Assembly: GCA_944363575.1 (NCBI GenBank)
Contig: CALVUJ010000024.1
Span: 144,107-208,106, forward strand
DNA: 64,000 nucleotides
Direction: 5' to 3'
Origin: an uncultured Bacilli bacterium
GTDB taxonomy: Bacteria; Bacillota_I; Bacilli_A; RFN20; DUOF01
In this document: piece by piece, positions 1,157 to 16,824 of the stretch
Numbering within the stretch: position 1 is the first letter of the stretch
Layout: each line of letters starts with the position of its first letter
Notes under the pieces: generated by a model
Seen by the model: the letters and a program-made list of their open reading frames with translations, nothing else
Database searches by the model: none
What the model was told of the DNA's origin: nothing
Made by a program: the position numbers and the translations under genes

Positions 1157-2170
1157 ATGATGCCTAAAAGAAGTGGATTACTTACATCGTTGTTAACTTT
1201 AATTATGCTAGTTACTTCACCAATGACTATATTTGCAAAAAATGTTTATGTTGGTGGGCAAAATATAGGAATTGAACTAAAAAGTAACGGGCTATTAATT
1301 TCAGGCACATATGATGTAAAACAACAAAACAAAACATACAATCCTAAAAGCAATAGTGATTTAAGAAAAGGTGATTTAATTATTAGCGTTGGAGAAGATA
1401 GGGTTAATTCATTAAATGATCTAGTAACTATTTTAAAAGAGAAATACGCTAATGAAGATAGTGCCCCAATAACTATTTTACGTGATGGAATAACATATAA
1501 GAAAAATTTAAAATTAATTAAAGATGAATTTGGTAATATTAAAACGGGGTTATTTATTAAAGAAAGACTATTAGGAATTGGAACAATCACTTATTACGAT
1601 CCAGAAAATAAGAGCTATGGTGCTTTAGGACACGAGATGAATGATGCTAGTTATAGCCCAAGCATTGATTTGTCTTTTGGAACTATTTATGCAAGTGATG
1701 TAACCTTAATTAGAAAAAGTAAAGATGGTGCACCAGGAGAAAAAATAGCATCCATAAATGAAGATGAAATACTAGGTGAAGTAACAAAGAACAATGAATA
1801 TGGCATTTATGGTAAATATACCGTTAATGTTGATGATTATGTTTCTTTAGAAGTAGGCGATAAAGATGATGTTAAACTTGGGAAGGCTCAAATATGGACG
1901 GTTATCCATGGAGATAAAGTAGAAAAATTTGATATAGAAATAGTGAGTGTAAAATCCCAAGAAAAACAAAGTATTAAAGGTATTTCTTTTAAAATAGTAG
2001 ATAAGAGGCTTTTAAATATAACAAATGGCATTGTAGCGGGAATGAGTGGCTCTCCAATTATCCAAGACAATAAAATTATAGGTGCAGTTACCCATGTTCT
2101 AGTTGATAAAGTAGAGTATGGTTATGGTATCTTTATTGAATGGATGCTAGAAGAGTCCAATAACTTATAG
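1157..2170 (+). CDS. spoIVB: SpoIVB peptidase (S55 family, PDZ domain plus serine peptidase)
   Basis: It has an N-terminal signal or anchor and a PDZ-like region (DLRKGDLIISVGEDRVNSL). The serine-peptidase motif GMSGSPI and a GALGHEM His region are present. The recN–spoIVB adjacency matches Bacillus and Clostridium gene order. Confidence 0.8.
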   Translation: MMPKRSGLLTSLLTLIMLVTSPMTIFAKNVYVGGQNIGIELKSNGLLISGTYDVKQQNKTYNPKSNSDLRKGDLIISVGEDRVNSLNDLVTILKEKYANEDSAPITILRDGITYKKNLKLIKDEFGNIKTGLFIKERLLGIGTITYYDPENKSYGALGHEMNDASYSPSIDLSFGTIYASDVTLIRKSKDGAPGEKIASINEDEILGEVTKNNEYGIYGKYTVNVDDYVSLEVGDKDDVKLGKAQIWTVIHGDKVEKFDIEIVSVKSQEKQSIKGISFKIVDKRLLNITNGIVAGMSGSPIIQDNKIIGAVTHVLVDKVEYGYGIFIEWMLEESNNL

Positions 2171-2207
2171 TCTAGATAGCAATATCTAGACTTTTTATAT
2201 AAAAAAA
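2154..2207 (+). repeat. 54-bp direct repeat, copy 1; it overlaps the spoIVB stop codon and contains an intrinsic terminator hairpin
   Basis: The sequence agtccaataacttatagtctagatagcaatatctagactttttatataaaaaaa is identical to 4813..4866. It contains the hairpin tctagata-gca-atatctaga followed by cttttt. Confidence 0.85.
2171..2198 (+). terminator. Rho-independent terminator after spoIVB
   Basis: An 8-bp stem TCTAGATA/TATCTAGA with a short loop is followed by a T-run. Confidence 0.6.
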
Positions 2208-2320
2208 TTTATTTGTTATGACCACAGTTTGCTAGTAAAAAAATTCATTAATTTTCATATACTAAATATTTAATAACAATTAAGATTGTATATACCTATA
2301 ATCATACATAAAGACAAATA

Positions 2321-2349
2321 TTGACAAAATATTAAAAACTTTATATTAT
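2321..2349 (+). promoter_or_regulatory. Sigma-A-like promoter (TTGACA-17-TATTAT) upstream of a leader ORF and the toxin-like gene
   Basis: TTGACA lies at 2321-2326 and TATTAT at 2344-2349, separated by a 17-nt spacer. Confidence 0.4.
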
Positions 2350-2374
2350 TAACCTAAGTTATGGAGGGTTTTAT

Positions 2375-2476
2375 ATGAATAAGAAACTCATTTATAAACT
2401 TAATAACATGTATATAATCGCAAGGGGAATTTTCCCCTTTTTTGTTACAAAAATAATGCAAGGTGTTCCACCCTGA
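2375..2476 (+). CDS. Putative 33-aa leader peptide (MNKKLIYKLNNMYIIARGIFPFFVTKIMQGVPP)
   Basis: A GGAGGG sequence sits 6 nt upstream of the ATG. The ORF is not in the six-frame track because it is too short. It contains an intrinsic terminator hairpin inside its coding sequence. Confidence 0.25.
   Translation: MNKKLIYKLNNMYIIARGIFPFFVTKIMQGVPP
2420..2446 (+). terminator. Intrinsic terminator or attenuator hairpin inside the leader ORF
   Basis: The hairpin aagggga-att-ttcccctt is followed by ttttgtt. Confidence 0.4.
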
Positions 2477-2525
2477 TAGAGTAGATTATAACTTATAAGA
2501 ATACAAAAAGGGAGGGAAAAGAAAA

Positions 2526-3590
2526 ATGAAATTAAAAAGTAAAATTATAAGTTTTGCAGTTTGTTTAAGCTTTTGTTTGGTGGCTTTATTTAATGCTATA
2601 TATTATAGAGATGAAAATATAAAAGTTCATGATACAGTTGTAAATAAAACAGATATAGATTATATGTCTTTATTAGATACATTTGATGAAAAGGAACTAA
2701 TAGTTAAAGAAGATGGGGCTAAATTAGAAGCTGTTCAATATTTAGATACTGATTTCTTTTCTGAACTAGATAATATGAGTTATAATGATGAAGTAGTTAC
2801 TAATAGTTATATTGATTATTCGTTTGATTTTAATAGTACATGTGATTTAATTATAGTAACAATTAGTTTCTATGAAAATGGTGAATTAGTTTCGGTAGAA
2901 ATAATTCAAGGTGTGCCTTTTGTTAATGAAGAAGGAAAAACTGATGCTGTTTTTAATGATGAAGGAGAAATTATTTATTTAAGTGATTTTGCCGATTTAA
3001 ATGAATTTGAAAATTGTGGCTTGTTTTCTAAATTAAAGAAAGTGGTAAAAACAATAGCACAAGTAGCAACAACAGCGACAGCTTATGCATTAGGTGCTGC
3101 GACAGTTTGTGGTGTGGTTGCAGTTACAGCAGCTTCAGCAATAGCAAGTGGTGGAGTAACTTTACCAATAGGCTTACCAGCGGTAGCAGCGACATTAGGT
3201 TGGGCGATGGTAGGCATATCTACAATAACAGGAACAACAGCAATTGGCTCATGGGGAATCACTGTGGGGATAGAAAAAACGGAAGAATCAGCAAATTCTA
3301 AAGAAGAAGATAAAGAAAAAGACTTAGAAGATAACAATAGTTCTAAAGCGGAGACTTCTCAAAACCAAATGCAAAAACAGGTGGAACGTGGACAGGCTCC
3401 TAAAGAAGTTGATAGAGTGGACAAAAAACATAATGAATATGGACAAGATCATGTTCATTTCAAAGATGGAACATCTATCAATAAAGATGGAACAGTTCAT
3501 GATAAAGGACATGGCACACCAAACTTGACAAATGATGTTCTAGATTGGCTAAATAGAAATGGATGGTGTTTAAATGGATTACAAAACTAA
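2526..3590 (+). CDS. Secreted toxin-like protein with a signal peptide, a Gly/Ala-rich glycine-zipper membrane segment, a charged linker and a His-rich C-terminal domain
   Basis: AGGGAGGG lies 9 nt upstream of the ATG. The N-terminal signal peptide is MKLKSKIISFAVCLSFCLVALF. The hydrophobic GxxxG/A stretch is AYALGAATVCGVVAVTAASAIASGGVTLPIGLPAVAATLGWAMVG. The C-terminal tail is HNEYGQDHVHF...HDKGHGTP. The 3' end overlaps the next ORF. Confidence 0.55.
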   Translation: MKLKSKIISFAVCLSFCLVALFNAIYYRDENIKVHDTVVNKTDIDYMSLLDTFDEKELIVKEDGAKLEAVQYLDTDFFSELDNMSYNDEVVTNSYIDYSFDFNSTCDLIIVTISFYENGELVSVEIIQGVPFVNEEGKTDAVFNDEGEIIYLSDFADLNEFENCGLFSKLKKVVKTIAQVATTATAYALGAATVCGVVAVTAASAIASGGVTLPIGLPAVAATLGWAMVGISTITGTTAIGSWGITVGIEKTEESANSKEEDKEKDLEDNNSSKAETSQNQMQKQVERGQAPKEVDRVDKKHNEYGQDHVHFKDGTSINKDGTVHDKGHGTPNLTNDVLDWLNRNGWCLNGLQN

Positions 3591-4008
3591 TAAAACAACT
3601 AATATTAATAAAATGGAATTTTATTCTATATTACATGATTGTGTTGTAGGAAAAATTCATTATACAAATGAAAGTTTGACATTTGATATATGGGATAATT
3701 CTAAAGTGGATGATACTCCTAAATACAATTTGAATATTCCTTTAAATAGTAAATTAGAAGATTGTGTGAATATTTATAATTATAAATTTGTTAATTACGG
3801 GGATATACAAGGAAAGGTCAATGATAGTAATGTTATTCTTAATGATTCTTTTAAGTTTCAAATTATAGATATAGGATATATGTATAACACCGTGTTTTTC
3901 AAAGGAAGCATGATTGATTCTAATGGTAATTTAGATAGAAATTACATTATAATAGAAGTTATAATAGAAGAAAATTTTGATAAATTAATCTTAAAAACGA
4001 ATATCTGA
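3574..4008 (+). CDS. Small cytoplasmic protein, candidate immunity partner
   Basis: Its start overlaps the upstream gene by 17 nt. GGATGGTG lies just upstream. It has no signal peptide. The architecture is typical of a toxin-immunity pair. Confidence 0.45.
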   Translation: MDYKTNKTTNINKMEFYSILHDCVVGKIHYTNESLTFDIWDNSKVDDTPKYNLNIPLNSKLEDCVNIYNYKFVNYGDIQGKVNDSNVILNDSFKFQIIDIGYMYNTVFFKGSMIDSNGNLDRNYIIIEVIIEENFDKLILKTNI

Positions 4009-4050
4009 TATGTTTTTTAGAATGTGTTTTAAGAGCTGTAAAAATAAGGA

Positions 4051-4764
4051 ATGATAAAATTGAAAGAAAAAAGAAATATATTAAGTCTGATAAATATAAT
4101 AATATCTAGTTTAGTATTAATAGGATTAATAATATTAATGGTTATTAATTTAAATAAGAAGGATGCTAATGATATATTTAAAGATACTTATGAAAGTATA
4201 GTAGAAGTTAAAGTAACCGAAGGTGAAGATATAGGTTATGGTAGTGGAGTAATTATTAGTGAAGATGGTAAAATAATTACTAATGCTCATGTTATTATCT
4301 ATGAAGAAGATAACTTATTTGATAAAGTAGAAATAAGATTAAGTTATGAAGATGAATACAGAGAAGTAAGTATTTTAAAATATGATAGCGATAAAGATTT
4401 AGCATTGCTTAAACTAGATAATGTAAAAGTAAAAAGTATTAAAACAAATACTGAATATAGTTATGGAGATAAAGTATATGCGATAGGTAATGGAAGCAAC
4501 TATGGTATTTCTATAACTGATGGAATAATATCTAATCCAAAGTTAACAATAGAATTAAGTGAGAGAAATGTTATAACCATACAATGTGATCTTACTATAA
4601 GTGAAGGTAATAGCGGAGGAGCATTATTAGATAACAAAGGAAGATTAATAGGAATAACTACATTTAGATTAAAAGATAGTAGCAATAAAGTAATACAGGG
4701 AATCAGTTATAGTATTCCTTATTATATAGTTAATGAATTTATTGAATGTGATAATAATTTTTAA
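4051..4764 (+). CDS. Membrane-anchored trypsin-like serine protease (S1 family, no PDZ domain)
   Basis: An N-terminal transmembrane segment is followed by the catalytic His motif TNAHVI, the Asp motif DLALLKL and the Ser motif GNSGGALL. Confidence 0.75.
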   Translation: MIKLKEKRNILSLINIIISSLVLIGLIILMVINLNKKDANDIFKDTYESIVEVKVTEGEDIGYGSGVIISEDGKIITNAHVIIYEEDNLFDKVEIRLSYEDEYREVSILKYDSDKDLALLKLDNVKVKSIKTNTEYSYGDKVYAIGNGSNYGISITDGIISNPKLTIELSERNVITIQCDLTISEGNSGGALLDNKGRLIGITTFRLKDSSNKVIQGISYSIPYYIVNEFIECDNNF

Positions 4765-4812
4765 CAAAAAGTATCTCAACTAGAATACACTAGTATTATA
4801 TAATTAAATATA

Positions 4813-4866
4813 AGTCCAATAACTTATAGTCTAGATAGCAATATCTAGACTTTTTATATAAAAAAA
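4813..4866 (+). repeat. 54-bp direct repeat, copy 2 (identical to 2154..2207), including a terminator hairpin
   Basis: It is a perfect 54/54 match to copy 1 and sits immediately upstream of addB. Confidence 0.85.
4830..4857 (+). terminator. Rho-independent terminator (second copy)
   Basis: The same hairpin tctagata-gca-atatctaga is followed by cttttt. Confidence 0.6.
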
Positions 4867-4900
4867 ATGATTTCTTTGCTATAATAAAAAAGGTGATTAT

Positions 4901-7237
4901 ATGCCATATAAATCTTATTTACAAGATAACACTTGCTTTATAGTTCCTAATTCCTTAAAACAGGAAATACTTTTTTATATATCAAATAATAAATTATTAG
5001 TTAATGTTTCTTTTTATAATATTGAAGAAGTAAAAAGAAATCTTTTTTTTGATTATGATGAAAAGACTATTTATATGTTAGCTACTCATTATCACCTTTC
5101 TTATGATGATGCCAAACTATATATAGAAAACATGTATTACTTAAATGATAAAAAACTAAACCATTTCAAAGTAACTAAATTACAAGAAATGAAAGCATAT
5201 CTAGATCAAAATAATTTATTAAAATATAACCCTACTTTTATAAATAATTTAAATAAGAAAAAAATTATTACAAGTTATTCTAAAACTTCCTTTTTTAATG
5301 AAAAGATTTTTTCTTTATTAAATAATGTAACTTATCTTCATAATGAAATTAGTGAAGAAAAAGAAATTTATGAATTTAATTTTATTGAAGAAGAAGTAGA
5401 GTTTATCGCTAATAAAATAGCTAGTTTAATAGATTCAAAAGTCAATATAAATAACATAAAATTAGTAAATGTAAAAGAAGAAGATCTTTTATTTATAAAA
5501 AAAATCTTTTCCTTTTTTAATATCCCTCTTCAACTAAATAATAGCACTAATAGCTATGAAACAGAGATTATCAAATATTTTATCAATAATTTAAAAGAAA
5601 CAAATGATTTAACTTTATCTTTAAATAATTTTAAAGAAAAATATCCTTTAATAAATACAAGAAACAACGATTTTTATAATCTAATAATTAACGTTATGAA
5701 TAAATTTTACTATATAACTGATTATAAAAAGGATCTTACTTATTTAATTGAAGAATTTAAAAAACAATATATAAGAGAAGAAAAATTAGCAAATTGCATA
5801 GAAATCATCTCTTTAGAAGAAATGAATAATAATGATAATTACTACTTTTTAATGGGTTTTAATAGTTATTTTCCTTTTCTATATAAAGATGAAGACTATT
5901 TAAGTGATAAAATAAAATTAGAATTAGGCTTTAAAACAAGTACTTATATCAATAAAGAAATCAAAAAATATACATTAAATAAAATAAAAGAAACTAAAAA
6001 TATTATTATTAGTTACAAATTAAAAGATTACTTTAACTCCTATCATATTTCTACTTTAATTGATGATTTATCTTACAATTTACATCAAAATTATCAAAAT
6101 AATAATGACTTTAGTTATTCTTCAAAATATGACAAACTAAAATTATCCAAATACTTAGATGAATTTTATAAATATTCGTATAAAAATAGTGAACTAGAAA
6201 AATTATATTCTAGTTATAAAGGGGATTATTATAATAGTTATGATAATCGGTTTAAGGGATTAGAAAAAAATAAATTTATAAATTATTTAAATAATGAATT
6301 AACATTATCTTATACTTCCTTAGATGACTTTTATAATTGCTCTTTTAAATATTATCTTACAAATTTACTAAAAGAGAATACACCAACTTTTGCTTCTAGT
6401 ATTGGCAATCTTTTTCATTATGTTTTATCTAAAATGTATCAAAAAGATTTTGATTTTGAAAAAGTTTATAACGAATATTTAAATACTTTAAACTTACTTG
6501 AAAAAGAAAAAGTTTTATTAATCAAAATTAAAGAAACTTTAAAAAAAGATATTGATATTTTAAATGAACAAATAAATAAAAGTTCTTTTGTTAAATGTAG
6601 ATGCGAAGAAAACATTAAAATTAACATTAAAAGTTCTATTTCGGTTATTTTAAAAGGATATATTGACAAGATTATGTTAACGGATGATTATAAAAAAGCT
6701 TATATTGTTGATTATAAGACAGGAAATCCTAAATTTAGTTTTGACTATTTAGAAAACGGGTTATATATGCAACTTGCTATATACATGTATTTATTAAATA
6801 AAAGTAAAGAATACGCTGATGTTTTTTTAGTGGGTTGCTACTTACAAAAAATACTCGATGATGATTTAAATAAAGAAGAATTAAAGTTAGAAGGGTATAC
6901 TTTTAATGATTTAAATATCGTACAAGAAATTGATCACAATTATCAATCTGGCAGTTTTATTAAAGGTATAAAAGCAACTAAAGATGGTGGATTAGGAATG
7001 TATGCAAAAACCTTTAATAGTGACACTTATAAACAAATTATTGAAACAATTGGTCGTAAGGTTAAAGAAGCTATTAATGATATTATTGATAATAAGTTTA
7101 CTATTAACCCTAAAATTGTTAATGGGAACAATATTTCTTGTAAATATTGTGAATTTAAAGATATTTGTTATCGTAAATATCAGGATTATATTAGAATTGT
7201 AAAGGAAGGTGATGAAGATGAGCAAGAATTGGACTAA
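4901..7237 (+). CDS. addB: ATP-dependent helicase/nuclease subunit B (AddB/RexB), compact form
   Basis: The RecB-like nuclease motif YIVDYKTGNP is present. The C-terminal CKYCEFKDIC plus an upstream Cys match the AddB Fe-S Cys pattern. It overlaps addA by 29 nt. At 778 aa it is much shorter than Bacillus AddB. Confidence 0.8.
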   Translation: MPYKSYLQDNTCFIVPNSLKQEILFYISNNKLLVNVSFYNIEEVKRNLFFDYDEKTIYMLATHYHLSYDDAKLYIENMYYLNDKKLNHFKVTKLQEMKAYLDQNNLLKYNPTFINNLNKKKIITSYSKTSFFNEKIFSLLNNVTYLHNEISEEKEIYEFNFIEEEVEFIANKIASLIDSKVNINNIKLVNVKEEDLLFIKKIFSFFNIPLQLNNSTNSYETEIIKYFINNLKETNDLTLSLNNFKEKYPLINTRNNDFYNLIINVMNKFYYITDYKKDLTYLIEEFKKQYIREEKLANCIEIISLEEMNNNDNYYFLMGFNSYFPFLYKDEDYLSDKIKLELGFKTSTYINKEIKKYTLNKIKETKNIIISYKLKDYFNSYHISTLIDDLSYNLHQNYQNNNDFSYSSKYDKLKLSKYLDEFYKYSYKNSELEKLYSSYKGDYYNSYDNRFKGLEKNKFINYLNNELTLSYTSLDDFYNCSFKYYLTNLLKENTPTFASSIGNLFHYVLSKMYQKDFDFEKVYNEYLNTLNLLEKEKVLLIKIKETLKKDIDILNEQINKSSFVKCRCEENIKINIKSSISVILKGYIDKIMLTDDYKKAYIVDYKTGNPKFSFDYLENGLYMQLAIYMYLLNKSKEYADVFLVGCYLQKILDDDLNKEELKLEGYTFNDLNIVQEIDHNYQSGSFIKGIKATKDGGLGMYAKTFNSDTYKQIIETIGRKVKEAINDIIDNKFTINPKIVNGNNISCKYCEFKDICYRKYQDYIRIVKEGDEDEQELD

Positions 7238-10200
7238 TGAACAATTAGAGGCCATTAATTCACCTACTGGAAATATACTTGTAAGTGCAGGAGCAGGAAG
7301 TGGCAAAACAGCTGTTTTAACTGAAAGAGTTATTACCTTACTAAATACGAATATAAAAATAAATGAATTGCTAATCTTAACGTTTACTAAAGCAGCAGCA
7401 ATGGAAATGAAAGAAAGAATTAAAAAAGCTATTAAAAAGAATTCAAAATTAAAAGAACAGTTAGATTTATTAGACAATGCTTACATTACTACTTTTGATA
7501 GTTTTGCTTTATCTATCGTTAAAAAATATCATTATTTATTAGGTGTTTCTAGTAATGTTAAAATTGTTAATGAAGCAGCACTAAAACTAGAAAAATATAA
7601 AATTATTGATGAAATAATGGAAGAAAAATATCATAGTAAAGATATCCATTTTACTTCTTTAATCTATCGTTTCTGTTTAAAAGATGACCAAGATTTAAAA
7701 AATTTATTTTATGAACTGAATGAAAAATTTTCTTTAATAATTGATAAAGAAACTTTTTTAGAAGAATTTTCTAATTCTTTAAATGAACAAAGAATTAAAT
7801 CTTTATGGGATTTTTACTTTAATAAAATTTTAGAAGAAATGACCGTTTTACAAAACTTATATTATGAAATAGAAAATAGTTTAGAAAGTGTTGAAGATGA
7901 AAACCTTTTTGAAAAACTTTCTCTAATCATGGAACCATTTATCAATAGTAATGATTATGATGTTATTGCTAGTAACATTAATTTTAATTTATCAAGTCTT
8001 AGAAACACTAAAAATATTAATGACACTTTTTTAAATAATAAAAAGGAAATGAGTAAAGTAAGAGATAAAATTAAAAAGATGATTAGTTATCCTCATAAAA
8101 AAGAAATTCTTGAAGCTTTAAAAGAAAATCAAAAATATGAAATAGAAATTATTTCAATTATTAAAGAAATTAATAAAAGAATTAATAAATTAAAGTTTGA
8201 TAATCAAATGTTTGAATTTATGGACATTGCTAAATTAGCTATTAAAGTATTAAAAGAAAATAAAGATATACGTGAGGAATTTAAAGATAGTTTAAAAGAA
8301 ATTATGTTAGATGAATATCAAGATACTAGTGATATTCAAGAAGCTCTTATTTCTTTAATATCTAATAATAATGTATATATGGTTGGAGATATCAAACAAT
8401 CTATTTATCGTTTTAGAAATGCTAATCCACGTATTTTTCTAGATAAATATAATGCCTACTTGAATAATCAAAATGGTAAAGTTATTAATTTAATGCGTAA
8501 TTTTAGATCTAGAGAAGAAGTATTAAATGATATTAATCTTTTATTTAATGAAATAATGGTCTCTAAACTTGGAGGGATAGAGTACTCAAATGGGCATAAG
8601 TTTATATATGGAAACATTGAATATGATAAAAATAAATTTTCTAATCAATCAAATAATCTAGAAATATATAACTATGATCGTAAAAAACTTAGTTCGCTTT
8701 CCTTTGATGAAATAGAAGCCTTTATTATCGCTTATGATATAAAAAATAAAATAGAAAGTAACTATATGATATATGATAAAGATAACAATATATCTAAAAA
8801 ACTTGAATATAAGGATATTACCATCCTTATCGATCGTAAAACAGGATTTGAAACTTATCAAAAAGTTTTTGAATACCTTAAAATACCTTTAAGCATTTAT
8901 AAAAACAACGATTTAACATTTAGCAATGAAATACTTTGTTTTAAAAACATTTTCAAACTACTTTTAAAATATAAAGAAAATAATTTTGATAGTGAATTCA
9001 AACACTCATTTATGTCTGTTGGAAGAAGTTTCCTATTTGAAATTAACGATAACGACTTATTTGATATAATTAGTAAAGAGAACTATTTTACTAACCAAAT
9101 ATATTTATCCTTAAAAGAAATTATCGATAATATAGATTATTTAAGTCTTAAAGAAATAATGAACAAAATTATGGAAAAACTAGATGTTTTTTATAAAATA
9201 GCAAAATGTAATAACATTGAAGACACTAGTGCGATTATCCATTATCTCAATGAATTAGTAGGGGATTTAAGTACCTTAAATTATGATTTAAAGAAACTAG
9301 TAGAATATTTTGAAGTCGTAATTTCTAAAGAATTTAAAATTGAATTACCTGTTCGTAAAAACAGTATGAATTCTGTTAAAATTATGACAATTCATATCTC
9401 AAAAGGATTAGAATTTAATATATGTTATTTTGCAGGATTTAATAAACGATTTAGCGAATTTGATAGTAAGAAAAAGTTTTTATATGATGATGAACTAGGT
9501 TTTTTATTACCTTTATTTATTAATGATGAAAAATATAAAAATATTGGAAATTATTATTATTTTGATAAATATTATGAAGAAGAGATAAGTGAAAAAATTA
9601 GATTATTATATGTTGCTTTATCTAGAGCCAAAGAGAAGATGATTATCGTAGGAGATTTTAGTGATACCAAAAATAAAAAAATTAACTTAAATGAAACACG
9701 AAGTTTTTATGATTTGATTAAATATGGAGAGTCTGTTTTAAACAAATATTACCGTTTTATTGATTTAACAACATATAATATTGACCCTAATTATAAATAC
9801 TATCGTCCAGTAAATAATTTATTTAAAAGTACTGCTAAAAAAATTATAAATAAAGAAATAAAGATAAATAATCACGTATTAGAGCGAACTAGTTTTTCTA
9901 AAAAGCAATTAAATCTTTTAGATGAAGATACTTGTAAATTATTAGAAAAAGGTAATGAGTTGCATCATATTTTAGAAAATATTGATTTAAAAAATCCTGA
10001 TTTAAGTATATATAAATTAAAGGAAAATGATTTAGAATTAGTTAAAGGATTCTTAAATAGCCCTTTAATAAAAAACATTAAAAGCGGAAAAATATATCAA
10101 GAATATGAGTTTATGTATCAAGAAAACGATGAAATAAAACATGGCTTTATTGATTTAATGATTGTTTATGATAATTATATTGATATTATTGATTATAAAT

Positions 10201-10337
10201 TATCTAATATCAATGATGAAAATTATGTTAAGCAATTAAAAGGATATAAAAATTATATTACTTATTTAACCAATAAACCGGTTCATTTATATTTATATTC
10301 ATTATTTAAAAAAGAATATTTAAAGATAGGAGAATAG
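7209..10337 (+). CDS. addA: ATP-dependent helicase/nuclease subunit A (AddA, UvrD family)
   Basis: The Walker A motif is GAGSGKT. UvrD/PcrA helicase motifs are present. The C-terminal nuclease motif is IDIIDYK. Confidence 0.85.
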   Translation: MMKMSKNWTNEQLEAINSPTGNILVSAGAGSGKTAVLTERVITLLNTNIKINELLILTFTKAAAMEMKERIKKAIKKNSKLKEQLDLLDNAYITTFDSFALSIVKKYHYLLGVSSNVKIVNEAALKLEKYKIIDEIMEEKYHSKDIHFTSLIYRFCLKDDQDLKNLFYELNEKFSLIIDKETFLEEFSNSLNEQRIKSLWDFYFNKILEEMTVLQNLYYEIENSLESVEDENLFEKLSLIMEPFINSNDYDVIASNINFNLSSLRNTKNINDTFLNNKKEMSKVRDKIKKMISYPHKKEILEALKENQKYEIEIISIIKEINKRINKLKFDNQMFEFMDIAKLAIKVLKENKDIREEFKDSLKEIMLDEYQDTSDIQEALISLISNNNVYMVGDIKQSIYRFRNANPRIFLDKYNAYLNNQNGKVINLMRNFRSREEVLNDINLLFNEIMVSKLGGIEYSNGHKFIYGNIEYDKNKFSNQSNNLEIYNYDRKKLSSLSFDEIEAFIIAYDIKNKIESNYMIYDKDNNISKKLEYKDITILIDRKTGFETYQKVFEYLKIPLSIYKNNDLTFSNEILCFKNIFKLLLKYKENNFDSEFKHSFMSVGRSFLFEINDNDLFDIISKENYFTNQIYLSLKEIIDNIDYLSLKEIMNKIMEKLDVFYKIAKCNNIEDTSAIIHYLNELVGDLSTLNYDLKKLVEYFEVVISKEFKIELPVRKNSMNSVKIMTIHISKGLEFNICYFAGFNKRFSEFDSKKKFLYDDELGFLLPLFINDEKYKNIGNYYYFDKYYEEEISEKIRLLYVALSRAKEKMIIVGDFSDTKNKKINLNETRSFYDLIKYGESVLNKYYRFIDLTTYNIDPNYKYYRPVNNLFKSTAKKIINKEIKINNHVLERTSFSKKQLNLLDEDTCKLLEKGNELHHILENIDLKNPDLSIYKLKENDLELVKGFLNSPLIKNIKSGKIYQEYEFMYQENDEIKHGFIDLMIVYDNYIDIIDYKLSNINDENYVKQLKGYKNYITYLTNKPVHLYLYSLFKKEYLKIGE

Positions 10338-15184: not shown

Positions 15185-15537
15185 TAGAATTAATTGTAAA
15201 AACATTATTAGACAAAAAAGGGGAGGATATTACTATTATAGATGTTTCAAAAAGAAATCCTTTATGTGACAACTTTATTATTTGTTCAGCAAATAATGTA
15301 CGTCAATTAGAAACTTTAGCTAAACAATTGGATGATAAATTAGCAGAAAATAACCTTCCTACTAAAAAAATTCAAGGAAAAGGTTCAAATTGGTTAATTG
15401 TAGATGCAGGTGATGCTATTGTACATATCTTTACAAAAGAAGAAAGAGAAAAATTTAACTTAGAAAAATTATGGGGTGATTTTCCTATTAAACATATCAA
15501 TACTAATGTAGAGAAAGTTGCTACTAAAAAAAGATAA
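15181..15537 (+). CDS. rsfS: Ribosomal silencing factor RsfS (Iojap/YqeL)
   Basis: The motifs GEDITIIDVS and LIVDAGDAIVHIF are present. Confidence 0.85.
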   Translation: MIELIVKTLLDKKGEDITIIDVSKRNPLCDNFIICSANNVRQLETLAKQLDDKLAENNLPTKKIQGKGSNWLIVDAGDAIVHIFTKEEREKFNLEKLWGDFPIKHINTNVEKVATKKR

Positions 15538-15636
15538 TTTTAAAAAAAAGGTATTATAATCTAATAACCTTTTTTTATTTATAGATTATATTTACATTTT
15601 TTCTTTTTTAAAATATACTTAAAGAAAATAAGGAAA

Positions 15637-16233
15637 GTGATAAAAATGATTCAAGAAAGTAAAATATTATCTCTAGCTAAAAAGAATAGGGGAGTAGTAA
15701 CTACTAAAGAAGTAAGTAACCATAACATAGCAAGAACATATTTAACTAAACTTGTTAATGAACATAAATTATATAGAGTAGAAAGAGGAATTTATTCTAC
15801 CTTTAACAAAAAAATAGACTTGTTTTATAAAATTCAAAATAGTAGCAAAAAAATTGTTTTTTCACATTTCACTTCCTTAGATATACAAGGATTTTATAAA
15901 AACATTGATATAACAGAACAATTGAGCATCCCACAAGGATATAACGCAAAAAATTACTCTAATTATAAATTATTTTATAATCACTTAAATAATTATCAAA
16001 AGGGGATGATAAAATACAAATATAATGATTATACTATCAATGTATATGATATCGAACGTTCAATTTGTGACATAATAAAAGATCGCCATCGTTTTGATGA
16101 AAGTAAATATAATAAATTTATAAACTTTTATTTTAATAAAACAGATATTAATTATAGTAAATTACTTGAATATTCAAAGATGTTACACATAAGCCCTTTA
16201 GTGCATCACTATTTATCATTATTTAAAGCTTAG
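15637..16233 (+). CDS. AbiEi-like winged-helix protein (type IV toxin-antitoxin antitoxin-like)
   Basis: The N-terminal pattern NRGVVTTKEVSNHNIARTYLTKLVNEHKLYRVERGIYS matches the AbiEi wHTH signature. The middle segment VFSHFTSLDIQGF is also AbiEi-like. The ATG at 15646 is an alternative start. Confidence 0.4.
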   Translation: MIKMIQESKILSLAKKNRGVVTTKEVSNHNIARTYLTKLVNEHKLYRVERGIYSTFNKKIDLFYKIQNSSKKIVFSHFTSLDIQGFYKNIDITEQLSIPQGYNAKNYSNYKLFYNHLNNYQKGMIKYKYNDYTINVYDIERSICDIIKDRHRFDESKYNKFINFYFNKTDINYSKLLEYSKMLHISPLVHHYLSLFKA

Positions 16234-16269
16234 TAACTAAAAAAATATTTATACATATTAATAATTAGG

Positions 16270-16749
16270 GTGATATGTATGAATAATTTTGATGAAGGAC
16301 TAAAAGAAACTAGAAACTATTTATATCAACAGGTAGATACTCTTGCACTTTTAAATAAATTATCTACTTCAATTAATTGTGAAATTTTAAATTTAGAAAA
16401 TTATCGAATTAATGTAATAGATGAAAACAGTTATATAATAAAATTTAATTTAACAAGCTTAATAAATAAACTAAAAGAATTTTTAAATGAAATTCATATT
16501 TTAATAAAAGGAAAAAAAGGATTTCCTATCTTTGGGTTAGGGGATATAGAAGCCATCTCGATAATAAAAGTAGCACCATCCACAGACTACAAACAATACG
16601 TAATATCAAATAACTTAAATAAAGAATTCAAAAACTTAAAAAACATTACATCAGAAATATTAAAAAATGCTCAAAAAGAAAATGATTATGACACTTTAAC
16701 CTTAATAGGTAACTTCTCGCTATTTTTAAATAAGAATATAAACTCCTAA
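16270..16749 (+). CDS. Hypothetical protein, putative partner of the AbiEi-like gene; it has no nucleotidyltransferase motifs
   Basis: A 159-aa ORF lies 36 nt downstream of the AbiEi-like gene. No recognisable motif was found. Confidence 0.4.
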   Translation: MICMNNFDEGLKETRNYLYQQVDTLALLNKLSTSINCEILNLENYRINVIDENSYIIKFNLTSLINKLKEFLNEIHILIKGKKGFPIFGLGDIEAISIIKVAPSTDYKQYVISNNLNKEFKNLKNITSEILKNAQKENDYDTLTLIGNFSLFLNKNINS

Positions 16750-16792
16750 ATCATAACTTCGCATAATATATATTATGTAATTTTTAAAGCAA

Positions 16793-16824
16793 TAAAAAAA
16801 GTATTCCTAATCGAATACTCTTTT
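16793..16824. terminator. Bidirectional intrinsic terminator between the hypothetical gene and metG
   Basis: The sequence aaaaaaa-AGTATTC-ctaatc-GAATACT-cttttattt has an A-run and a T-run flanking a 7-bp stem. Confidence 0.5.

Follow-up and report, generated by a model that had tools for sequence, protein, structure and literature searches.

The closest described counterpart of the genes reported here is the ABP/S8-PTS system (AbpT-AbpP-AbpI), in which a toxin exported by the Sec route is partnered by an S8 protease that is exported with it, while the immunity protein stays in the cytoplasm (Li, Tan & Zhang 2022, PMC9424270; Colautti et al. 2025, PMC12582261; Mwangi et al. 2026, PMC13556192; review, PMC13460014). 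The toxin contains BetaH, a domain of ~120 amino acids (aa) composed of an acidic seven-stranded sheet and a C-terminal cationic amphipathic helix, and the co-encoded serine protease cuts the loop that precedes this helix (PMC9424270, PMC12582261, PMC13460014). The resulting helix-plus-toxin fragment enters diverse Gram-positive cells in a membrane-potential-dependent manner (PMC9424270, PMC12582261, PMC13556192, PMC13460014). We analyzed a 64,000-nucleotide (nt) stretch of DNA, hereafter the window, from an uncultured Bacilli bacterium (assembly GCA_944363575.1, contig CALVUJ010000024.1, positions 144,107 to 208,106), in which three adjacent genes specify a putative toxin, its putative immunity protein and a protease of family S1. 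The explanation we favor, to which we assign a probability of roughly 0.6, is that these genes encode a protease-activated secreted polymorphic toxin with a dedicated S1 protease and immunity protein.

All three genes lie on the forward strand, in the order toxin (2526..3590; 354 aa), immunity (3574..4008; 144 aa, without a signal peptide or transmembrane segment) and protease (4051..4764; 237 aa, Trypsin_2/HtrA-like, apparently membrane-anchored and lacking a PDZ domain), the last being proposed as the dedicated processing enzyme. A first-pass annotation of the window had read the 354-aa product as an N-terminal hydrophobic signal followed by an acidic domain, a hydrophobic stretch, a linker and a His tail, and had placed the start of a 144-aa open reading frame (ORF) without a signal peptide 17 nt before the toxin stop codon; both descriptions agree with what we found, the toxin and immunity genes sharing 17 nt. 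The toxin begins with a Sec signal peptide or signal anchor (aa 1-26; 2526..2603) consisting of MKLKSK and 16-18 hydrophobic residues, behind which no canonical AxA cleavage site could be read in the sequence. It continues with an acidic domain, N1, of net charge -27 (aa 27-165; 2604..3020; assigned from the structural model and composition), a Lys-rich cationic amphipathic helix, LFSKLKKVVKTIAQ (aa 166-184; 3021..3077; charge +4, hydrophobic moment 0.67), an uncharged hydrophobic stretch rich in Ala, Thr, Gly and Val that is proposed to act in membrane insertion or translocation (aa 185-252; 3078..3281), an acidic linker recognized by composition (aa 253-277; 3282..3356; charge -6), and a C-terminal domain, the tip, delimited by profile and homolog searches (aa 278-354 plus the stop codon; 3357..3590). 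Five His residues (H302, H309, H311, H325 and H329) are found in the tail. Net charge is -1 for the tip, -7 for tip and linker together, and -3 for everything that follows the N-C-G motif described below.

The overall design resembles that of the ABP system in that a polymorphic toxin and a serine protease, both predicted to be exported, are encoded together with an immunity protein of the cytoplasm, and in that the toxin comprises an N-terminal signal, an acidic beta-sheet domain of ~120-140 aa, a loop, a cationic amphipathic helix and an exchangeable tip. In the model, N1 formed seven beta-strands (aa 55-151), with predicted local distance difference test (pLDDT) scores of 80-92 for aa ~91-150. 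Next came a loop modeled at low confidence (aa 158-166), which has an invariant N-C-G at its end, and then a helix (aa 166-178). Across 12 family members the N-domain charge ranged from -23 to -30, while the helix carried +3 to +6 and had a hydrophobic moment of 0.46-0.74. The junction is marked by the motif N-C-G-[LFW]-F-[SK]-[KR] (aa 162-169; 3009-3032), which stands directly before the cationic helix in all N1-type toxins. The Cys of this motif (Cys164) was invariant, and the other N1 tips give no consistent disulfide partner for it; a disulfide between Cys164 and Cys348 was considered and is unlikely, because other N1 tips lack Cys. The predicted features of N1 and BetaH agree (seven strands, a charge of -27, a loop and a +4 helix), the two being likened by published description and not by sequence. 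Further points in common with the ABP system are the position of the protease gene, either upstream of the toxin gene or downstream of the immunity gene, the presence of RNases and HNH-type DNases among the tips, and a cytoplasmic immunity protein beside the toxin, here the product of the 144-aa ORF. With regard to the Sec signals of the ABP components, toxin and protease here both possess N-terminal hydrophobic segments, that of the protease being anchor-like. The two systems nevertheless differ in several respects. The window protease belongs to family S1 and is membrane-anchored, whereas the ABP protease is a secreted S8 subtilase, and no S8 (subtilase, PF00082) match was obtained for the adjacent peptidase; N1 toxins contain an uncharged hydrophobic stretch of 33-85 aa between helix and tip; tip charges in the N1 family run from neutral to acidic (0 to -17), in contrast to the strongly cationic tips of ABP toxins; the hosts are a clade of AT-rich gut Bacilli; and the window tip is not among the 16 ABP toxin domains in the review (PMC13460014).

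Homologs of the toxin (n = 55) fell into two sets, one having aa 1-250 in common with the window protein but ending in other C-termini, and the other sharing only the last ~80 aa. In the second set, the tip was located at the ends of RHS proteins (PF05593, PF25023, PF03527), PT-HINT proteins (PF07591) and one peptidoglycan-binding protein. A profile search of 1.84 billion representatives with the tip, the signature of which is TSQNQMQKQVE.GQAP..VDRVD...H.HFKDG...N.DG..H...WL..NGW, yielded 995 cluster representatives (689 at E<=1e-10), and the domain is spread over ~10 phyla; the tip occupied the extreme C-terminus in nearly all of the 150 family proteins listed, and the long carriers contained RHS repeats, DUF6531, DUF6443, Peptidase_C39 or Fil_haemagg_2. 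A genome scan detected 55 tip loci in Bacillota, Treponema, Roseateles/Mitsuaria, Acidobacteriota, Chlamydiae, Streptomyces, Bacteroidales and others, in which the tip either ended ~2000-aa RHS proteins or formed short orphan modules; a tblastn search of plasmids produced a single match, which was CdiA-like. Because a position at the extreme C-terminus of RHS, CdiA-like and PT-HINT proteins is the signature of a polymorphic-toxin tip, these sequence comparisons strongly support the view that the last ~77 aa constitute such a tip, of an undescribed family. Both halves of the protein behave as expected of polymorphic toxins sensu Zhang et al. 2012 (PMC3482391): unrelated trafficking architectures carry the tip (RHS, DUF6531, DUF6443, Peptidase_C39, Fil_haemagg_2, PT-HINT and peptidoglycan-binding), and the N-terminal trafficking part is joined to alternative C-terminal toxin domains. 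As with the RHS, CdiA and PT-HINT toxins of that survey, the same tip with its immunity gene ends ~2000-aa RHS proteins and CdiA-like hemagglutinin-repeat proteins and also occurs in short orphan tip-immunity modules; unlike them, the window protein has no RHS, filamentous-hemagglutinin or HINT module and instead combines a small Sec-dependent domain with a separate protease.

Scans of the toxin, the tip family and the immunity families against Pfam, NCBIfam, PADLOC and PHROG returned nothing above noise, the noise-level matches being DUF6799, DUF4160, C5orf34_C and DUF4085. PDB sequence searches with tip profiles of 41 and 55 sequences recovered only a His-tag artefact, and the tip motifs were printed in no paper found by literature search. 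The first-pass annotation had compared the tail with HNH/EndoVII-type toxins, and this assignment found no backing from Pfam or NCBIfam hidden Markov models or from the fold search (HNH_3 appeared in 1 of 41 family members, at E 0.21); nor was a beta-beta-alpha metal-finger fold seen in the tip, the AlphaFold model of which was confident (pLDDT 92.5). No match of the C-terminal domain to a non-toxic binding domain, a possibility the same annotation had raised, was found either. To judge from residue alternation and residue chemistry, H309, H311, N319 and H325, which should lie on one exposed face of the beta-meander HVHF-KDG-TSIN-KDG-TVH, together with D314, may form the active site. Among described toxins, PT6 (Nachmias et al.), compared by description only, has a similar taxon spread but acts in the periplasm and is linked to extracellular contractile injection systems (eCIS), and Tde5 (PMC13392607) is a different domain of 135 aa. 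One family protein, P0026 (208 aa), had the tip fused in frame to an 85-aa immunity sequence of the CHSHFRDW type described below; this fusion probably arose by read-through in gene calling or from a frameshift in the contig, which is metagenomic.

A small ORF on the same strand, usually overlapping the toxin gene, followed the tip in 35 of 36 analyzed loci, and these ORFs included four recurrent families, namely the window-type family (at least eight loci), a family of 85 aa with a CHSHFRDW motif (13 loci), one of 165-185 aa with a TPPSLYL motif (5 loci) and one of 173 aa (2 loci). No Pfam family was found for these tip-paired small soluble proteins. Close homologs of the 144-aa protein were rare (three clusters), and divergent homologs occurred directly 3' of the tip, mostly overlapping the toxin stop codon, in loci L001, L002, L004, L014, L029, L060 and L062, with 31-36% identity to the L001 and L002 copies (E 2e-14 in the pairwise comparison for L001; E 3e-13 by BLAST for L002). 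Profile comparison with hhalign linked the 144-aa family with ORFs that follow the tip in Lachnospiraceae, Treponema and Chlamydiia (89%, E 2.4e-6), and an N-terminal LHD motif was common to all members joined in this way. Co-variation of a cognate downstream immunity gene with the tip is a further hallmark of polymorphic toxins, and the identification of the 144-aa ORF as the immunity gene is strongly supported by these comparisons. The toxin-immunity reading of the first-pass annotation is thereby upheld, with the tip found on known toxin architectures and homologs of the small ORF following it elsewhere; the proviso that the small ORF might not be conserved with the tip is contradicted by the seven loci named above. 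All of the immunity proteins lack a signal peptide, and the target of the tip is therefore probably cytoplasmic. Nuclease colicins (E9/Im9, E3/Im3) act on Gram-negative targets, are released by SOS-induced lysis and have no dedicated protease. The window toxin shares with them a diffusible modular design, a small C-terminal cytotoxic domain and a linked downstream immunity gene, but they show no sequence or fold similarity to its tip.

Besides the window tip, the N1 part (aa 1-250) was joined to at least five others, and a gene of its own followed each of them. In L066 it was joined to a barnase-type Ribonuclease tip (PF00545) followed by Barstar, in L057 to a WHH/Colicin-DNase tip (PF14414/PF12639) followed by a SUKH protein, and three further N1 tips were unannotated; L001 encoded two toxins that were identical in their N-terminal halves but differed in the tip and in the ORF that followed. 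A profile search for N1 homologs added only five short fragments, and a metagenome scan for further N1 toxins gave one locus only, L066. The neighboring protease is a Trypsin_2/HtrA-like S1 enzyme (PF13365, PF00089; E 3e-24) with an intact His/Asp/Ser triad in the motifs TNAHV, DLALL and GNSGG, and its N-terminal hydrophobic segment (23 aa, without an AxA site) looks like a membrane anchor. In each of the seven independent contexts long enough to judge (window, L001, L057-59, L060, L062, L064-65 and L066), a membrane-anchored trypsin-like protease of 229-239 aa adjoined the N1 toxin-immunity pair, in the order toxin-immunity-protease in the window, L057-59 and L064-65 and in the order protease-toxin-immunity in L001, L060, L062 and L066. 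The flanking genes of these loci were unrelated, and at least five different tips were represented; the window and L001 proteases were 53% identical, and the catalytic triad was conserved among the proteases. Where the same tip was borne by other N-domains of Bacilli, no such protease adjoined the toxin gene. The protease accompanies N1 regardless of the tip, and by these sequence relationships the N1 half appears to act in trafficking as a module linked to the protease. The earlier suggestion that the membrane-anchored S1 protease is a processing partner is also supported by this synteny, which held in seven independent contexts. Trypsin-like partners of polymorphic toxins were not described in the literature searched, and the words 'trypsin' and 'HtrA' are absent from the text of the 2012 polymorphic-toxin survey (PMC3482391).

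The strongest competing explanation, which we regard as unlikely, holds that the toxin is an ordinary Sec-secreted polymorphic toxin with its immunity protein and that the adjacent enzyme is a housekeeping HtrA-type quality-control protease with no part in toxin action. Many Sec-dependent polymorphic toxins indeed need no separate protease, the same tip is found on other N-domains with no protease nearby, and the best NCBIfam matches of the window enzyme were to HtrA, DegP and DegS. Those matches reached at most 120 bits, far under cut-offs of at least 250 bits, and the PDZ domain that characterizes housekeeping HtrA proteases is missing, so that the enzyme does not fit the description of the HtrA/DegP/DegS (S1C) proteases. 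A housekeeping role is also hard to reconcile with adjacency in 7/7 contexts that have unrelated flanks and two gene orders, with the location of the protease gene inside a repeat-bounded cassette in three loci, and with the occurrence of three protease copies in L062 and of a truncated remnant in L001 that was copied along with the toxin 5' end.

The cassette is delimited in the window by two copies of a 64-nt direct repeat (~54 nt exact), one at the left edge (2154..2217) and one at the right edge (4813..4876), between spoIVB (1157..2170) and addB/addA (4901..10337), which flank the three-gene set; G+C content in this region is 21-29%. The repeat is made up of the final 16 nt of the spoIVB reading frame and the hairpin terminator of that gene, and the two copies enclose exactly the leader, toxin, immunity and protease genes. 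Repeats of 75 nt likewise enclosed toxin, immunity and protease genes in L064 (3889-3963 and 6833-6907), and in L066 the cassette was bounded by 32-nt repeats (4056-4087 and 6614-6645) corresponding to the terminator behind an integrase gene. The repeat sequence is local to each locus and differs among the window, L064 and L066. Bracketing direct repeats were looked for and not found in L057 and L060, and an exact-match metagenome scan for the window repeat or an empty site gave no match. The bracketing in the window, L064 and L066 indicates that the three genes behave as one mobile unit, and the dissimilarity of the repeats among loci implies that insertion is accompanied by duplication of 30-75 bp of target sequence. 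Positions 2218-4812 of the window are probably an inserted cassette, which would equip a low-GC gut Bacillota bacterium with a Sec-dependent polymorphic toxin system of three components.

Rearranged relatives of the cassette were observed at two loci. In L001, a truncated remnant of the protease gene lay between the first immunity gene and the second toxin gene (91% identity over 95 nt; 5501-5595 / 7555-7649) and was followed by a second copy, 100% identical, of a segment comprising the 3' end of the protease gene and the 5' half of the toxin gene (5881-6180 / 7650-7949). To judge from these sequence identities, the arrangement indicates that the protease-toxin unit was duplicated in tandem, after which the tip and the immunity gene were replaced. 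L062 is a 19-kb contig with three diverged trypsin-like protease genes (397-1110, 2958-3590 and 5281-5988) and an rve-family transposase, in which the intact N1 toxin adjoins the third protease only; the other two proteases may be remnants of further cassettes.

In the mechanism that we propose, toxin and protease would both be exported or anchored at the outer face of the membrane, and the S1 protease would cut the loop between the acidic sheet and the cationic helix, at a predicted site around aa 152-166, as AbpP does in BetaH. The freed helix and hydrophobic stretch would then bind and insert in the membrane of a neighboring Gram-positive cell, and the small tip would be carried into the cytoplasm. 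There the tip would act on a cytoplasmic target, most likely nucleic acid, by way of H309/H311/N319/H325 and D314, a guess based on residue chemistry and the habit of such tips, while the cytoplasmic 144-aa protein would bind and neutralize the tip in the producer and its kin. Several observations weigh against this account. The protease is a membrane-anchored S1 enzyme rather than a secreted S8 enzyme, and the fragment that would be released is not cationic (net -3; tip plus linker -7), so that import driven by membrane potential, as for the ABPs, is doubtful. The sample of N1 proteins is small (~20 proteins in seven contexts) and comes from related gut Bacilli, and AlphaFold gave the hydrophobic stretch a pLDDT of only ~30. 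Finally, a Foldseek search with the full-length model gave no significant match, and colicin N RBD and TipC, which have been published as look-alikes of BetaH, were not among its results.

Placement of the tip is the point on which a second alternative turns, one that we judge slightly less probable than a housekeeping protease. According to this alternative, the toxin is an intracellular protein tethered by an odd number of membrane spans with its tip in the cytoplasm, and envelope stress or phage attack prompts a DegS-like protease on the outer side to cut the sensor-like N-domain, setting off regulated proteolysis by which the tip is released inside the cell for abortive infection or suicide. 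A membrane-anchored DegS-like protease together with an extracytoplasmic domain followed by a hydrophobic segment does recall RseA/DegS logic, protease domains similar to that of the window enzyme occur in the PADLOC RT-Protease and Avs1b models, and the immunity protein is cytoplasmic. The same tip, however, sits on exported RHS, CdiA-like and PT-HINT toxins, and tips are exchanged along with immunity genes, as for interbacterial toxins. In addition, the stretch is moderately hydrophobic with a single obvious Gly/Pro turn, which favors a hairpin and hence an even topology, and no site-2 protease or phage-sensing gene is located within the cassette.

The hydrophobic stretch is itself part of an uncharged run of 68-74 aa (aa ~178-252) composed of 22% Ala, 17% Thr, 14% Gly and 12% Val, with Kyte-Doolittle values of 1.0-1.7. 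The first-pass annotation had seen in it repeated small-xxx-small spacing and a resemblance to pore-forming segments, and neither claim was supported. The run contained 11 [GAS]xxx[GAS] pairs compared with 12.4 ± 2.1 in shuffled sequences (80% of which reached the observed number) and one strict GxxxG only, so that the motif enrichment of glycine-zipper pore-forming toxins is missing. The stretch is moreover kept in relatives with barnase-type RNase or WHH/colicin-DNase tips and soluble immunity proteins, which favors a trafficking or membrane-insertion segment over a pore-forming killer. An uncharged run of at least 30 aa was present within 130 aa upstream of the tip in 38 of 136 family proteins but in only 1 of 44 control windows, and such runs were also found after the RHS DPxG site; the data suggest a recurrent, optional helper for membrane passage. 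The least probable alternative, that the Ala/Gly-rich stretch is the weapon (a pore or depolarizing agent like TelE or EsxX) and the His-rich tail an accessory binding or targeting module, can appeal to the length and lack of charge of the stretch and to the glycine-zipper membrane toxins that exist in Bacillota (PMC10434224, PMC12744356), but it is very improbable given the chance-level spacing, the bona fide nuclease tips of relatives that keep the stretch, the absence of any hydrophobic run from 72% of the family proteins, in which the tail is always the terminal module, and the solubility of all four immunity families, immunity to pore formers usually being conferred by membrane proteins. 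A functional precedent is Tde1, in which a Gly-rich segment carries a nuclease effector across the target cytoplasmic membrane (Ali et al. 2023, PMC10240207). Both proteins join a Gly-rich hydrophobic segment to an effector acting in the cytoplasm; Tde1, in contrast, is an Agrobacterium type VI secretion system effector with defined GxxxG repeats, whereas in the window toxin GxxxG-type spacing is at chance and the route is by Sec and a protease.

The preferred explanation of a protease-activated toxin can be extended, more tentatively and at somewhat less than even odds, to a previously unrecognized class of polymorphic toxins in gut Bacillota that are diffusible and are activated proteolytically by an S1 protease. 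Such a class would be a parallel or divergent counterpart of the ABP/S8-PTS system: the membrane-anchored trypsin-like protease would uncage the cationic helix and the long uncharged segment, and this membrane-insertion segment would bring the tip into target cells in place of a cationic cargo and the membrane potential. The tip, on this view, represents an undescribed toxin family distributed over RHS, CDI and HINT toxins of ~10 phyla, its fold matching no solved structure. The same tentative extension holds that insertion of the cassette duplicates a 30-75-bp target, which is an intrinsic-terminator hairpin in two of the three cases.

The region upstream of the toxin gene showed additional features on the forward strand. 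A promoter-like site (TTGACA, a 17-nt spacer and TATTAT; 11/12 matches) is located at 2321..2349, and its TTGACA box was kept at the equivalent position 5' of the toxin gene in L057 and L064. It is followed by a 33-codon upstream ORF, MNKKLIYKLNNMYIIARGIFPFFVTKIMQGVPP (2375..2476, including the stop codon), which is preceded by a GGAGGG ribosome-binding site and is a candidate leader peptide, and inside this ORF lies a terminator-like hairpin, AAGGGGAATTTTCCCCTT, with a T-run (2422..2445), a candidate attenuator. A small upstream ORF was present wherever the toxin gene was the first gene (the window; L057, 5845-5955; L064, 4074-4196), and all three ended in [GS]-V-P-P-stop. Each contained a hairpin in which the stem sequence varied and the pairing was kept, followed by the conserved sequence GTGTTCC[AT]CCCT. 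The upstream ORF and its internal hairpin may therefore be a leader-peptide attenuator; an Rfam scan of the leader region gave no family, the best match being the rimP leader at E 4.1.

Farther along the window, at ~15200-16800, gene orientation switched from + to - and GC skew changed sign, with a cumulative skew maximum near 16 kb. A replication terminus in this region would fit these changes; a search of the window that allowed up to 3 mismatches found no dif site of the B. subtilis type.

What appears to be new here, as far as genomic comparison can show, is an S1-protease variant of the protease-activated secreted polymorphic toxin together with a widespread tip that is absent from the databases and papers searched. 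ABPs were characterized only in 2025-2026, and the route by which they cross Gram-positive membranes is an open question. If our explanation is true, a second system, in which the protease is of another family and the cargo is non-cationic and has a hydrophobic carrier, would make the strategy more general and would offer a natural contrast for identifying what drives import. The tip, with ~1000 clusters, a cross-phylum distribution, four unrelated immunity families and neither annotation nor solved structure, is a clear target in the search for a new toxic activity. The hosts are human and animal gut Bacilli known mostly from metagenomes, and the system may shape competition within gut communities.

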